Assembly (NCBI GenBank): GCA_951406725.2
Contig: OX597814.1
Location: forward strand, 57,350,001-57,414,000
Length of the DNA stretch: 64,000 nucleotides
Direction of reading: 5' to 3'
Origin: Octopus vulgaris
Lineage: Eukaryota
The translations under genes were made by a program, and so were the position numbers. Positions 9,061 to 17,578 of the stretch are shown piece after piece (positions within the stretch are counted from its first letter, which is position 1; each line of letters opens with the position of its first letter). The notes below the pieces were generated by a model. It saw only the letters and a list, made by a program, of their open reading frames with translations. It did no database searches and was not told the DNA's origin.

Positions 9061-9411
9061 ATGGCATAGTTTTATATTGTTTTACTTGCTTCAGTCATGC
9101 GATTGTGGCCATACTGGAGCACCGCCTTTAGTCAAAGAAATCGACCCCAAGATTTATTCTTTGTAAGCCTAGTACTTATTCTGTCAGTGTGTTTTGCCAA
9201 ATGACTGTCATGGGGATGTAAACACAGCAACATTGGTTGTCAAGTGATCTCAGGGCTACAAACACAGATGCACACACACACACACACACAAAAAAAATAT
9301 ACACATAAATAAGACAGACTGCTTTCACTTTCCATGTACTAAATCCACTCACAATGCATTGGTGGGCCTGAGGCTATAGTATATTTATATATATATATAT
9401 ATATATATATT

Positions 9412-9562
9412 CTCTCCTTGTTTTTTCTGTGTACCTTTCTGTAGAAGAGTGTAGGCTCAAAACGTAAAAGACTTTTTCTATTCCTGAGCGCTATACTAAT
9501 ACATCTGTTTGTTTTGTACACCATCTGTCTTTGTCTTTTGTTTTTTTCGTAAACTTTCCCTA
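9412..9562 (+). mobile_element. Penelope-like terminal repeat with a degenerate minimal hammerhead (9435-9470)
   Basis: CTTT-CTGTAGA-A-GAGT GTAG GCTC-AAAAC-GTA-AAAG; homologous copy on the - strand at 15240-15410. Confidence 0.6.
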
Positions 9563-9601
<39 letters not shown>

Positions 9602-9609
9602 CTTTCTCT

Positions 9610-9814
9610 TTTCTACTTGTTTCAGTCATTTGAATGCAGCCATGCTGGAGCACCGCCTTTAGTCAAGCTAATCAACCGAATGACTTATTCTTTGGAAGCC
9701 TAGTACTTATTCTATCAGTCTCTTTTGTCGAACCGCTAAGTTACAGGGACATAAACATATCACCATCGGTTGTCAAACGATGTTGGGGGGACAAACACAA
9801 ACACACAAACATAT

Positions 9815-9857
<43 letters not shown>

Positions 9858-10022
9858 TACACGACAGGCTTCTTTCAGTTTCTGTCTACCAAATCCACTC
9901 ACAAGGCTTTGGTCCACCTGAGGCTATAGTAGAAGACACTTGCCCAAGGTGCCACACTGGGAATGAACCCAGAACCATGTGGCTGGTAAGCAAGCTACTT
10001 ACCACACAGCCACTCCTGTGTC
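9610..10022 (-). mobile_element. CORE-type SINE family B
   Basis: Full-length homolog of 56215-56585. Confidence 0.85.
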
Positions 10023-10326
10023 TATATATATATATACATACATACATAAGTTAGCGGTTATAGTATAAATAAAAATATCCGTATTTACTATTGCTATCAG
10101 TTACCTGTGCTATTCCTGGGCATGGATATGCAGGCACACTATGCTCATGGCGTACAGGTAATAACAGAATAAACAAAAGTTTATCAAATTTAAATAATCA
10201 GAAAATGGAGAAAACTTTTGATCAACAAACAAACAAATTGGACCACATCTGTAGATTATTTTTTAATACAAAACATGACATAACATTTCTTGCGGCCGTT
10301 TCTGTTTTCGGCATTGGAATTTCAAA

Positions 10327-10536: not shown

Positions 10537-10568
<32 letters not shown>

Positions 10569-10699
10569 TCTTTGACACTATATGCTTACATACTTTACTT
10601 TATCTTAAAGTCATTCCTTAACTTCTCCCCTCACTCTATCTACCTATCTTTACTTTTCTTTCTTTTTACCACTTTATAGCCACCTTCTCTACCCTTCTG

Positions 10700-10925
10700 A
10701 TATTGCACGTTGATATGTTCGCGTCTTTTTCCTGGATGTTTACAATATCAGAACTTCAACCCACAGGATTATACCTAAGGACTTATTTCTACAACATCGG
10801 AAAGTTGAACTGTGAACTTTTATGCTTTTTTCCTTTCATCTCCTTATTCCTTTACTCCTGTCTTCTATGTTGTCATTTCATTAATCTATACCCTTCTCAT
10901 TTTCCCTATTTGTCTCTGATGATGG
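10700..10925 (+). mobile_element. Penelope-like element 3' end (GIY-YIG C-terminal remnant and 5' half of a hammerhead); continues at 15085-15190
   Basis: Peptide FSWMFTISELQPTGLYLR resembles the PLE C-terminal WIxxLxTLxPxGLN motif; GTCT-CTGATGA at 10912-10922. Confidence 0.6.
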
Positions 10926-11195
10926 TGTAGTGTGATGGATGAAGAGGACAACAGAAGGAGAAGGAGAAGAAATACAAAAGGCCTTACCTCGGCGAAGATC
11001 AGGTCTCTTACCAATTCGACACGTCCTGTCGCTTCCTCGTCTATGCTCGAACTGCTCGCTTCCTCGATCGCCACAAGTGCGTCCCACTTAACCGCTTCCA
11101 CTTCCCCCCCACACATACGCCCTCCAGTCTTCCACCGGACCCTGCAAGCCCTACTTCCGCCCACCTCATCTGTTGTCCTCTCCACCGACACCACA
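10926..11195 (-). repeat. 3' LTR (270 bp)
   Basis: Direct repeat of 14828-15084. Confidence 0.93.
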
Positions 11196-14041
11196 CGCCC
11201 CCCTGATCTACAGATCACTGAACTGGCTTTCTCACTCACTCTCCGCTCCCGAACTCACACCTTAATTGGTTTCATAATCAGCCAACAAGGGAGGAGGGTG
11301 CCGTTCCCTCTGTGGTCACAGTGCAACCCTAGGACTGGTTCCTGGCATGTTGCTACTGGCCTCATCATCCTATCTACTGATGTTGTTTTCATCTTGCCCA
11401 CTGCTGCTGATCCCATCCTCTGAGGCATGGACAATCCTTCGTACATCCAAAACGTGGCATGGCAAACCATCGACCGAGATGTTGTTCTTTAAATTTACAG
11501 AGGTTATTGTCCCCTTCCCCCATCATGATATACACTGTGCGTTTGGGGGTTTTACCCAAACTTCTTCCCCGACCTGCACGAAGGCATGCTCTTCCTCTGC
11601 CCCGGGTCGCATTGATGCAGTACACGGATGCCAGAATATTGCCCTGTGTGGCACCGACTCCTCAGCCTGTCCTGATCTGGGCGACATATTGTACCAAAAT
11701 ACAGCCTTGATTGGTGAAATTTGACTCCACTCTGCCATGGCCTTGATGGTATGATGATGCCTTTCCACCACCCCATTTCCACTTGGCCGGTATGCCGCCC
11801 TGAAGAAGCAGTTGACCTTCCACCCATCAAGCATTTCTTTCAGCACATCCGAGCGAAATACAGTGCCATTATCCAGAAGCAGTTCATCCACGGGGCCTCG
11901 TTCCAGGAATGTCTCATTCACTACTTTCACAATTTCCACTGCGGTCCCCGTCTTCATCTCCCTCTATATGGCCAACCGCCCCAGTCTGCAGTCAACCATT
12001 GAGAGGTACGTCCCCTGCCGGTAGTGTGTTATGTCCACCACCAGTCGTTTCCAGTCGTGGTCCACTGGAATACTTCCCGCCTCATGTACGCCCGGAGCAG
12101 GGTCGATGGACTGGCACCTGTCACAACTGCTAACCACTCTCTGCACGCTCTGTCTTGTTACATCGGAGTCAACTTTTCTGGCTAGGAACAATATCCTGTC
12201 CACACCCATGTGATGCATGGTATGCAGTCTCCGCAACTCCAAGTTGCTCAGACGGCATACTGCAGCTACAGCCTGCTTCACATTCTCTGGCACCTGCAAC
12301 CAGGCTCGCTTTACCCTGGTCAGGACATCTGCCCTGTTCTTCTCGGAAGGCACAAAGATCACGCTCAGCTTCAGATTGAACTCAGTGGTTAGTTCACGCA
12401 GTATCCCCAATCAATGCTTTACCAGCATCTCTGCAACCCCTTTGGTTCGCACCCTCCGCTCATTGGTGATGACTGCTGTCACCCAACCAAGTACAGTGGC
12501 CGAATCAGTCCTGATTTCTATGGTGTGCAACCCCCACTTCAAGGCTAGGTTCACCCCCTTCAACACGGCATCCAACTCCGCCACATTGATATAATTGCAG
12601 TCATCCGTCTTCCTGAGCCAGGCTGCATCTTCCACCATGACACCTCCCACTTCTAAGACAACCCCTATCGCGATGCTACTGGCATCACACCATACAATCC
12701 CGCTCTTTGATTTGGGAACATACTAACTGCCCCTCACTGGGTTCTCTGCTCCTACTCTGACCAAGACTTCCTGTATCATGTCGATCGTCTTCTCCCACAC
12801 TCTATCGTTCCACTTCACTCCTTCGGCTCGTCTCTTGATGAAGCTACATGCTGTCTGGAGCCATCCTGCAATCAGGTAGTGTCCCACCAGCTTCCCACAC
12901 ACAGAGAACAGTTCCCATCTACTCATGCTGGCACCCAGTTCAGGGACCTCATTCCCTCGCCGGAACACCAACACACCAGCCTTGTATCTCCATAGTTTGA
13001 GGCCCAGTGCAGCACCTCCCTCCATTGCCTCTGGTGGCTTGGCGATCAGTCCAAAACTCTTCAGGTGGCCTATGACCTCCGTTGCTGGCATTACGGTTTC
13101 GTCCACCAGAATGTCATCGATGTACGAATTGGTGGCCCTTTTTACTCTGTCCACCTTTCCCAGGATAGCCTTGAGAATTGTTGCCACAATCTTTGGCGCT
13201 GAATTCAGCCTGAACCCCAACCTGGTCAGACAGTACGTCCGGCCCTTATACCTGACAAGCTGGTACTTCCACAATTTCTCAGCCACATGCACCTGTAGGT
13301 ATGCCGACTTCAAATCAACAATCGTGGAGGCCCCTGTCATCTGCCTCCACTCTTGCAAGGTGTCTCTGCAGACATCTGTGGCCTAGCTGCCTGTATGACA
13401 TGATACGTGGTCATTCAGCTCTCGGAAGTCAAGCACTGGCCTGACCTTATGCTTTGTGGGCTGTATCACCACTATCAGTGGCAGGACTCCGCTCTCTTCT
13501 TTTTCCCAAGGGATCAATATGCCCTCCTTAATCCACCGCTCCACCTCCCCCTCGAACTCACTTCTGGCATCTCCTTTTAGAGTATGCTGATAGCAGCCCA
13601 CTTTATTCTTTAACATCGGGGGCTCTCTCTTCCAGTGCAGCATGCTTTTCCTCACGGTTGTCACCAGTGCATGGTCTCGCCATACGCGGTTTCCTCGCAA
13701 ACCCAAACGTTACACCGGCCTCGTTAACAGTGACATCTCCCAAACGGGTGATTGCATCCATCCCCATCACCACGTCAATCTCGTCCAATAAGTAGCCAAC
13801 CACAATTGCTCGCAGCGTCAGCTGTATTCCCTGCACTACAAACCGTGCATCTGTAACGCCTTCACAGTGTACTTCTCTTCCGTCGACTGCTCTTACACTG
13901 CTTTCTCCACTCCACATCTCTGCCACTTCTGGAGTCATCAGGGTTGTCATAAAGCCCGTGTCCACAAGGGCTCGCGACATCTTCCCCTCCGCCAGAATGT
14001 CGACCACAGGTAGTGACGATAAATGTGCCTCTATTGATCCA

Positions 14042-14085
14042 AAGGGACAACTACCAGCGCAGTAGTCTCCCTCAGTCCGTTTCCC
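14042..14085 (-). other. gag-pol -1 ribosomal frameshift signal
   Basis: G GGA AAC in the gag frame (14085-14079), 6-nt spacer, then hairpin AGGGA GACUAC ugcgcug GUAGUU g UCCCU; the -1 frame is the protease ORF 13603..14094. Confidence 0.8.
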
Positions 14086-14827
14086 CACAGACATTCACTG
14101 GCTATATGCCCCAGTTCTCGACACCGGTAGCAAATGACCTCAGGCTTGGGTGACTTGCAGTCACGCACCATTTCCAGACCCTGGCACCGGAAACACTGTC
14201 CTTTGAACGGTCGCACACGTTCTTTCTTCAACCCCTCTCCACTGCTCCTAGCTCGGCCACTTTTCATTGTTGCAGTCGCTGGTACTGACGTCATTCTGCT
14301 GCATGAAACTAGCACGTGTGCCCGAGATACGATGTCTGCCATTGGCATCGAATGAACGTTCAGAAGCTGCTGTAATTCTCGACCGACATGTTGTCAGGAA
14401 AGCCAGTCACGAACGCCAACCTAACCATCCGGTCCAGCAACTCTTCCTCATAACCCGCCAGTTTAGCCAATCTCCTAAGTTCATTGGCAAATACATCCAC
14501 CTGTTCCCCAGTCCATCTTGTTCTACCCAGGCGATCATATGCCTCAAACATTCCCTCCGCAAAGGCCTCCATCAACCGTATTTCTACTTTCTCCGCGCTG
14601 AGTTGGTCTGTCTCCTCCATCTCTAGATACAGCGCCAATGCCGGACCATCCAAGTACAGCGGTATGAAACTCGCTAGGTCGTTTATACCGTGGAGCTTTG
14701 CCACCAACTTCACCTTCTTCAACCAAGCGATTACATCCGTGTCGCCGCAAAACGGTTTAATCATCTTGTGCGAAATATGGGCACTCATCGTTCATTTTTT
14801 TTTTTTTCTTTATGTGCCGAAATAGCT

Positions 14828-15084
14828 TGTAGTGTGATAGATGAAGAGGACAAGAGAAGGAGAAGAAATACAAACAAGCCTTACCTCGGCGAAGATCACT
14901 GGTCTCTTACACGTCCTGTCGCTTTCTCGTCTATGCTCGAACTGCCCACTTCCTCAATCGCCACACGTGCGTCTCGCTTGACCGCTTCCGCTTCCCCCCG
15001 CACATGCACCCTCCAGTCTTCCACCGGCCCCTGCAAGCCTTACTTCCGCCCACCTCATCTGTCATCCTCTCCACCGACACCACA
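14828..15084 (-). repeat. 5' LTR (257 bp)
   Basis: Direct repeat of 10926-11195. Confidence 0.93.
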
Positions 15085-15239
15085 GACAGAATATCCCATA
15101 CTCTGGGATAACCCAGAAACAGCTGTAAGGCTTTGAATTTCTTCCAATAATAATAATGTATATGACTTAAGATGTTTGCCTTACCTTAATGTTTGTTGTT
15201 TCCTTTAACAATTATATATATATATACATATATGTATAT

Positions 15240-15410
15240 AAAGGGAAATTTTTACGAAAATAAACAAAAGACAAAGGCAGGTGGAGTACAAACAAACAAA
15301 TGTATTAGTATAGCGCTCAGGAATAGAAAAAGGCTTATACGTTTTGAGCCTACGCTCTTTGACAGAAAGATACACAGAGAAAAACAAGGAGAGAAAAAAA
15401 TGCGTGTAGG
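15240..15410 (-). mobile_element. Penelope-like terminal repeat with a degenerate minimal hammerhead (15334-15369)
   Basis: Reverse-complement homolog of 9412-9562. Confidence 0.6.
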
Positions 15411-15585
15411 AATACATATATATGTATATGTACATATATATATGTGTATGATACATATATATATGTATCATATATATGCTACATATATATATGTATCATA
15501 TATGACTGGGCCTGATGAAGCCTTCCGGCTTCACAGACCCCAGTTGAACCGTCCAACTCATGCTAGCATGGAAAACGGACGCTAA

Positions 15586-15617
<32 letters not shown>

Positions 15618-15620
15618 ATA

Positions 15621-15895
15621 GGCACAGAAGTGGCTGTGTGGTAAGTAGCTTGCTAACCAACCACATGGTTCCGGGTTCAGTCCCACTGCGTGGCATCTTG
15701 GGCAAGTGTCTTCTGCTATAGCCCCGGGCTGACCAATGCCTTGTGAGTGGATTTGGTAGACAGAAACTGAAAGAAGCCTGTCGTATATATATATGTGTGT
15801 GTGTTTGTGTGTCTGTGTTTGTCCCCCTAGCATTGCTTGACAACCGATGCTGGTGTGTTTACGTCCCCGTCACTTAGTAGTTCGGCAAAAGAGAT
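15621..15895 (+). mobile_element. CORE-type SINE family B, 3' truncated
   Basis: ggcacagaagtggctgtgtggtaag..ggttcagtcccactgcgtggcatcttgggcaagtgtc. Confidence 0.85.
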
Positions 15896-17530: not shown

Positions 17531-17578
17531 GTCTCTGATGAAGGGATATAATAAATATCCTGGAAACAGCTGTAAGAC
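17531..17578 (+). ncRNA. Type-I hammerhead ribozyme motif (Penelope-type)
   Basis: GUCU-CUGAUGA-A-GGGAUAU AAUAA AUAUCCU-G-GAAAC-AGCU-GUA-AGAC. Confidence 0.8.

Follow-up and report, generated by a model that had tools for sequence, protein, structure and literature searches.

A divergent LTR retrotransposon nested in a Penelope-like hammerhead motif of Octopus vulgaris, with a primer-binding site complementary to tRNA bases 1-12

How did a long terminal repeat (LTR) retrotransposon come to lie inside the hammerhead ribozyme motif of another retroelement, and what kind of element is it? The question is raised by a 64,000-nt stretch of Octopus vulgaris DNA (contig OX597814.1, positions 57,350,001 to 57,414,000; hereafter the window), in which a 4,159-bp LTR element occupies positions 10926-15084 on the minus strand, within the hammerhead motif of the 3' untranslated region (UTR) of a Penelope-like element (PLE). 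Taken together, the sequences make it probable that an old LTR element landed, most likely by chance, in the hammerhead of a truncated PLE, that it belongs to a divergent animal lineage, and that it was likely primed by a 12-nt fragment from the 5' end of a transfer RNA (tRNA). Genome-wide counts given below refer to the 2.8-Gb genome that holds the window (G000; the window is G000:C1:57350001-57414000), with the number for a control pattern beside them where one is given, and labels of the form L### denote fetched loci.

The nested insertion

The hammerhead motif lies on the plus strand and is split into a left half at 10912-10925 (stem I 5' strand, 10912-10915; core box CUGAUGA, 10916-10922; start of stem II) and a right half at 15085-15131 (stem II hairpin; GAAA box, 15116-15119; palindromic stem III, 15119-15126; GUA triplet, 15125-15127; stem I 3' strand, 15128-15131). 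The LTR element is bounded on the plus strand by GATGG (10921-10925), which covers core positions G8, A9, the extra base, G10.1 and G10.2 (numbering after PMC4209133), and by GACAG (15085-15089). The sequence-only reading had taken both 5-mers for one GACGG target-site duplication altered by reciprocal CpG decay, had concluded that insertion of one retroelement broke the hammerhead carried by a second, and had predicted that other PLE copies would carry the joined sequence, all of which is borne out by the genome. A gapped two-half pattern returned 228 uninterrupted hammerhead copies versus 0 for the reversed control, and both flanks of the window locus align end to end through the junction in uninterrupted copies, e.g., L051, L049, and L269. 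When 32 such copies were read at the target 5-mer, both states were found alongside GACGG (GATGG 15, GACGG 13, GACAG 3, GACAT 1), a spectrum that agrees with CpG decay of GACGG and in which GACAG is under-counted, since most of these copies were selected by a pattern requiring NGG. The family duplicates 5 bp at other loci as well, with exact repeats on both sides at 8 of 30 LTR loci and a 4/5 match at 2 more.

The inserted sequence has the expected parts of an LTR retrotransposon, i.e., besides the target duplication, two direct LTRs with TG...CA ends (5' LTR, 14828-15084, 257 bp; 3' LTR, 10926-11195, 270 bp), a polypurine tract abutting the 3' LTR (11196-11209; an identical tract lies by the 3' LTRs of L020, L022, L026, and L030), and a gag-pol region (11400-14788, left end approximate), all on the minus strand. 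This region encodes gag with a CCHC knuckle, protease, reverse transcriptase (RT) with YIDD, DUF7047, RNase H, and integrase, and is now dead, being disrupted by frameshifts and several in-frame stops. The LTR pair is separated by a Kimura two-parameter distance of 0.10 (19 transitions and 5 transversions over 255 columns).

That the LTR family targets PLE hammerheads, an idea raised in the earlier reading along with a check of insertion flanks for enrichment, now appears most improbable. Flanks were checked for hammerhead half-motifs at 210 loci representing 193 distinct insertions, and only the window locus carried one (1/193, hence 0/192 elsewhere); 14 further BLAST matches lie outside the motif. 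Genome-wide, a pattern joining the left half to the LTR start gave 27 matches versus 9 for the control, while one joining the LTR end to the right half gave 101; a single match among the 27, and a single one among 30 inspected from the 101, was an LTR, each time at the window locus. Other inspected matches to the second pattern came mostly from a hammerhead family with a long stem. The duplications found at solo LTRs are unrelated 5-mers. For targeting speaks the small size of the target, since one insertion was seen within 20-54 bp where 0.003-0.08 would be expected among 193, but it was this very locus that prompted the search.

Chance suffices to explain the event if motifs are counted broadly. 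The genome holds 2,158 strict hammerheads and 20,769 exact half-motifs (190 for the control), and with the larger number 0.4-1.1 hits are expected over 2,754 LTR-element candidates (565 identified by gag and 2,189 by Gypsy RNase H; lower bounds, with solo LTRs excluded). We regard a chance insertion as most likely. It is an ordinary nested insertion, probably without consequence. Several points weigh against it. The strict count yields only 0.04-0.12 expected hits, so that the single event would have been lucky; weak targeting, at less than ~1% of insertions, may exist; and no orthologous empty site was found. Contigs from three runs (organisms A, B, and C) carry the joined form, and a raw-read run gave 3 reads; on their shorter side these contigs cover no more than 44 bases, and with their very high depth they are not separable from paralogous PLE copies.

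A primer-binding site matching the 5' end of a tRNA

Abutting the 5' LTR with zero spacer is the primer-binding site AGCTATTTCGGC (14816-14827, minus strand), the exact reverse complement of nucleotides 1-12 of tRNA-Phe(GAA). The genome contains 94 pattern matches to this tRNA, and ARAGORN assigns Phe to 6 of 7 genes. The predicted duplex energy of the site is -18.8 kcal/mol with tRNA bases 1-12 and -7.3 kcal/mol with the 3' 20 nt of the tRNA. The 3'-end primer site usual for Ty3/Gypsy elements is excluded, and so is hemivirus-type half-tRNA priming, since the match covers bases 1-12 and not the anticodon arm.

The site recurs at many loci. Junctions between LTR and primer site number 195 in the genome versus 3 for the control, and the 90 that were fetched span 29 LTR clusters, with 80 of them running into the lineage's gag. 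As these 90 were chosen by the site pattern, the 88 perfect sites among them arise by construction and are not evidence. What they do reveal is that conservation stops sharply at tRNA base 1, the next base being A in 36, C in 20, G in 20, and T in 14. In an unbiased set, for which gag was the sole criterion of choice (90 copies, the top 30 plus 60 spread over a list of 150), the tRNA was matched at 12/12 positions in 49 copies, 11/12 in 31, 10/12 in 6, and 9/12 in 2, with the site absent in 2; 19 of the 49 departures were of the CpG type.

The same register is found in distant relatives. Ten relative loci with 38-45% amino-acid identity were recovered from metagenome and metagenome-assembled genome (MAG) contigs, apparently eukaryotic DNA. 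Seven of the ten, representing five families, have an LTR/primer-site junction, a count from which L098, L384, and L386 are omitted because the 5' junction is off the contig or the gag start was not found. All these sites begin AGCTA at the same place, and in all five families the match ends at tRNA base 12. The tRNA differs between them: the site is 12/12 to octopus (G000) tRNA-Phe in L389-L391 and 11/12 in L387, 12/12 to a natural tRNA-Phe variant (L392) in L097, and 12/12 (L385) or 10/12 (L388) to octopus tRNA-Lys genes.

The primer site is a robust sequence observation; the mode of priming that we infer from it would be new. Specifically, bases 1-12 of mature tRNA-Phe would anneal to the site and the tRNA would be cut after U12, in our preferred version by an RNase H that the element itself supplies and that attacks the paired RNA, by analogy with Tf1 self-priming, or alternatively by a host nuclease. 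RT would then extend the U12 3'-OH straight into U5, and plus-strand synthesis, on copying the primer, would run off the 5' end of the tRNA and regenerate exactly 12 bases, which would account for the variable base 13. A primer of 10 nt would also be possible if integrase trims two bases.

Instead of being cut by the element, the primer may be a ready-made 5' tRNA fragment that a host nuclease makes or trims, the element's RNase H having no part in the cutting. We consider this possible though doubtful: it fits the sequence evidence equally well, and a precedent exists in Copia and Ty5, whose tRNA primers are truncated from the 3' side as far as the anticodon loop (PMC10886601). However, the cut at base 12 is constant over different tRNAs and distant hosts, a register that would suit a cutter measuring from the 5' end of the duplex. 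RNase H cleavage can be 5'-end-directed, and free 12-nt pieces would be shorter than the commonly described 5' tRNA-derived fragments. The most far-reaching reading, possible but less likely than not, is that the element's own RNase H cuts the host tRNA at base 12, a version in trans of Tf1 self-priming, within an unnamed, superfamily-level animal lineage (sponge, molluscs, crustaceans, and sea spider) characterized by DUF7047 and a non-Gypsy RT-RNase H.

Tf1 itself uses an 11-nt self-primer cut by RNase H. Could the site here likewise pair with the 5' end of the element's own transcript, the match to a tRNA being incidental? Self-priming is documented from fungi to vertebrates (PMC4600332), and a hairpin between U5 and the primer site is predicted for the window's family. 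Yet no LTR of 90 pairs at more than 9 of 12 positions, and the mean pairing equals that of shuffled sequences (-10.5 versus -10.4); these LTRs thus offer no self-primer partner, as predicted from LTR sequence with transcript starts unmapped, and a Tf1-type site is rejected on that basis. Moreover, the site is fixed across 29 unrelated LTR clusters, and the relatives carry sequences matching other tRNA 5' ends, so we judge self-priming very unlikely. Priming by a tRNA-derived 12-mer would resemble Tf1/Tj1 in that a short stretch at the extreme 5' terminus of an RNA serves as primer, with an RNase H cut as the model (PMC4600332), and would differ from them in that the 5' end comes from a host tRNA in trans and the LTRs have no complementary stretch.

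Alternatively, the 12-mer may bind a tRNA or a protein for packaging, dimerization, or translation control, with minus-strand DNA primed in some other way. The 5' strand of a tRNA offers no free 3'-OH unless cut, and priming is here a prediction from sequence, both of which favor this view. On the other hand, the site occupies the very position at which a primer has to terminate, flush with the LTR, and no second primer-binding site was found after the LTR in the copies examined. A role other than priming is therefore unlikely in our view.

Priming by the 12-nt tRNA piece has several points to contend with. The argument for it is drawn from complementarity alone. A U5 stretch pairs with the primer site in the window's own family (-13.6 versus -10.8 for shuffled sequences), and tRNA bases 8-12 are common to many tRNAs. 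The relatives' sites were matched to tRNAs of other organisms rather than those of their own hosts, and the L385 site is preceded by AA instead of CA, its LTR edge being uncertain.

Among known systems, the nearest in kind are Drosophila Copia, Ty5, and the fungal Helenus/Copia elements, which also prime from the 5' portion of a tRNA, given its 3'-OH only by cleavage (PMC10886601); unlike theirs, the site here corresponds to bases 1-12 (from the 5' strand of the acceptor stem to within the D stem) of tRNA-Phe or tRNA-Lys, in an element with Gypsy-type domain order. Besides tRNA 3' ends, PMC10886601 reports truncated-tRNA primers, and these only for Copia lineages. The open literature, taken here without Repbase, GyDB, and subscription journals, yielded no report of a primer site matching tRNA bases 1-12.

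Recognized primers of LTR elements are the 3' end of a tRNA, half a tRNA, or the element's own 5' end. If the proposed mode is true, a 12-nt 5' tRNA piece would add one more to these, linking half-tRNA priming with Tf1 self-priming, and to our knowledge no shorter tRNA-derived LTR primer exists. It would also imply that regulation of these elements, where it involves tRNA fragments, could depend on the 5' kind instead of the 3' kind, and that the site escapes LTR finders whose scoring uses tRNA 3' ends.

Two minor observations concern the distribution of these sequences. Eleven primer-site junctions fall within ~5.4 Mb at G000:C4:93.7-99.1 Mb, a denser grouping than elsewhere listed and possibly an insertion-rich region. 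A tandem array of ~48 tRNA-Phe genes with 200-bp spacing lies at G000:C18:30147675-30157146.

A divergent lineage of LTR elements

The sequence-only reading had called the element Gypsy, and here the evidence is divided. Its domain order, protease-RT-RNase H-integrase, is that of Ty3/Gypsy, and it shares the TG...CA termini and the 5-bp duplication; more broadly, gag-protease-RT-RNase H-integrase, no env, and a single RNase H are likenesses to Ty3/Gypsy (Metaviridae), including the mollusc elements Cigr-1 and MolGy1-16 (PMC6238403). Neither the primer site, which does not match a tRNA 3' end, nor the RNase H fits, and the atypical RT-RNase H makes the name doubtful. None of 17 relatives matched the Gypsy RNase H profiles PF17917/PF17919 (0/5 at E ≤ 1, 0/12 at E ≤ 0.001). 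The RNase H in the window matches RVT_3/RNase_H only, whereas canonical Gypsy elements of the same genome score 101-122 bits to Gypsy RNase H, and RT identity to their canonical Gypsy RT is 22-29% for 19 of 20 loci.

Structure-based searches did not place the element's RT. The nearest Foldseek matches to the modeled protein are caulimovirid RTs at ≤18% identity, and Ty3 RT is not among the 60 PDB matches listed. Leads from the Atlas, to hepadnavirus P and Euglenozoa clusters, point to reverse-transcribing elements with no finer placement. The model has a single RNase H, and the distance from the catalytic DD to the first RNase H Asp is 144-146 amino acids, compared to 147 in a canonical Gypsy element of this genome.

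A profile of the lineage retrieved 758 clusters (50% identity) at E ≤ 1e-30 and only 6,964 at E ≤ 0.001. The nearest named relatives are from argonaut, sea slugs, and crustaceans, and named hosts include Argonauta, Aplysia, Plakobranchus, Oratosquilla, Palaemon, Trinorchestia, Amphibalanus, Nymphon, and Sycon. For this widespread lineage with its non-Gypsy-like RT-RNase H, the primer site provides a simple marker. In viral contigs, the primer 15-mer has 58 matches, none in a contig encoding a relative, and a protein scan of viral contigs gave none either.

The element may belong to one of the mollusc clades described in PMC6238403 (Cigr-1, MolGy); the readable supplements of that paper contain no matching sequence, and it gives no primer data. 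As deep animal LTR lineages long overlooked and once filed under Gypsy, Troyka/Kuafuorterviruses (PMC12440569, PMC11673190) and Odin (PMC9040795) offer a parallel. Membership in either is excluded: Troyka elements (Kuafuorterviridae) have CG...CG ends, a 3-bp duplication, and I/V/LADD (PMC12440569) versus TG...CA, 5 bp, and YIDD here, while for Odin, Loki, and Retroviridae a tether and second RNase H are expected (PMC9040795) versus one RNase H at canonical spacing.

Several same-family or same-lineage copies have features of their own. L012 (G000:C24:17531371-17531641) is a solo LTR that is flanked by a perfect 5-bp duplication and lies in the pol part of a second copy from the same family. 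L020/L026 (G000:C23:9606730-9608034) is a 1.3-kb copy with an internal deletion that keeps both LTRs, the primer site, the polypurine tract, and an exact 5-bp duplication. A sister subfamily (L002, L005, L008, L015, L017, L018, L021, L023, L027, and L029) has an LTR with a common extension past the end of the window's LTR. Near-identical copies of another family of the lineage (L069-L071; G000:C1:57299259, 57307397, and 57315553) are spaced by ~8.15 kb and form a local tandem triplication 35-50 kb before the window. Lastly, the relative in L389-L391 lies inside an ~8.2-kb tandem unit present three times on contig CAXXMW010000015.1, with two tRNA-Ser(TGA) genes per unit; the contig is filed in a bacterial MAG, is probably eukaryotic DNA, and possibly reflects insertion near tRNA genes.

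The Penelope-like host repeat and its hammerheads

The host repeat was identified as Penelope-like in the earlier reading, and endonuclease motifs, (TA)n sites, and 5' truncation among its genomic copies support this. The window contains no more than ~490 nt of it, all 3' UTR and bounded by (TA)n tracts, with both parts on the plus strand. The left part of this 5'-truncated fragment (10565-10925; 3' UTR/pseudo-LTR) begins beside a (TA)n tract and is 73-79% identical to the uninterrupted copies L051, L248, L258, L269, and L262, where it maps ~500 nt or more 3' of the end of the endonuclease open reading frame. The right part (15085-15215), the 3' end, stops at a (TA)n tract and is 84-89% identical to L050, L049, L042, and L269. 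A peptide just upstream of the insertion, WMFTISELQPTGL, had been read as the PLE C-terminus; this does not hold, as the stretch maps ~700 nt 3' of the last endonuclease motif and is interrupted in most copies, and is thus UTR.

Across the genome, PLE copies all stop ~130 nt past the motif, vary in where they start, and in some cases come with inverted partial copies. The longer ones encode a broken endonuclease that has a CxCX5C linker, shows CxxC and CxH motifs, and lacks CCHH (L248, L262, L264, and L269). One of five endonuclease pieces matched Pfam GIY-YIG, weakly, at E 0.063, and a protein search with an endonuclease piece against longer proteins gave no relative. Broken RT-like pieces in L248, L250, L252, and L259 had no Pfam match. 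The repeat otherwise has the features expected of a PLE, i.e., 5' truncation, tandem or inverted copies, (TA)n sites, and a hammerhead near the 3' end. Hydra-clade PLEs are marked by CxCX5C, CxxC, and CxH and by insertion in (TA)n (PMC8557442), and the copies here resemble them in the linker, in CxxC and CxH around a conserved E and N, and in (TA)n sites. Assignment to a PLE, Hydra-clade-like by its endonuclease motifs, is supported by these sequence features.

The joined motif had been described as a complete hammerhead. It is real, but it is a minimal motif, with a palindromic stem III that requires a second copy. The features of minimal type I PLE hammerheads are present (the boxes CUGAUGA and GAAA, an additional base following A9, a palindromic stem III, and an NUH triplet), and it resembles the minimal dimeric PLE hammerheads in the extra base, long stem II, and palindromic stem III (PMC4209133). 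Such hammerheads are described as dimer-dependent, with poor cleavage in vitro (PMC4209133). Unlike in the Hydra-clade PLEs and hammerheads of PMC8557442 and PMC4209133, an extra purine (A or G) precedes the GAAA box in most copies, where C11.1 would be expected directly before G12, and the window copy is a 3'-UTR fragment. Rfam found no hammerhead within the window; its 33 matches at E ≤ 1 were all microRNA-like on simple repeats or sub-threshold. The broken hammerhead is likely without function.

An intact motif at 17531-17578 (plus strand), considered for comparison only, had been thought closely related to the split one. The two are ~75% alike in the motif and differ in their flanks, and the intact motif belongs to another PLE subfamily, with 82% identity to L053 over 250 nt. 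In a further hammerhead family (L423-L452), the stem II region spans ~45-50 nt and stem III has the same palindrome, with a 3' part common to ~90 listed copies. Around the LTR element, at 9080-10030 and 15290-15894, the window also contains several copies of common short interspersed repeats, in direct and inverted orientation.

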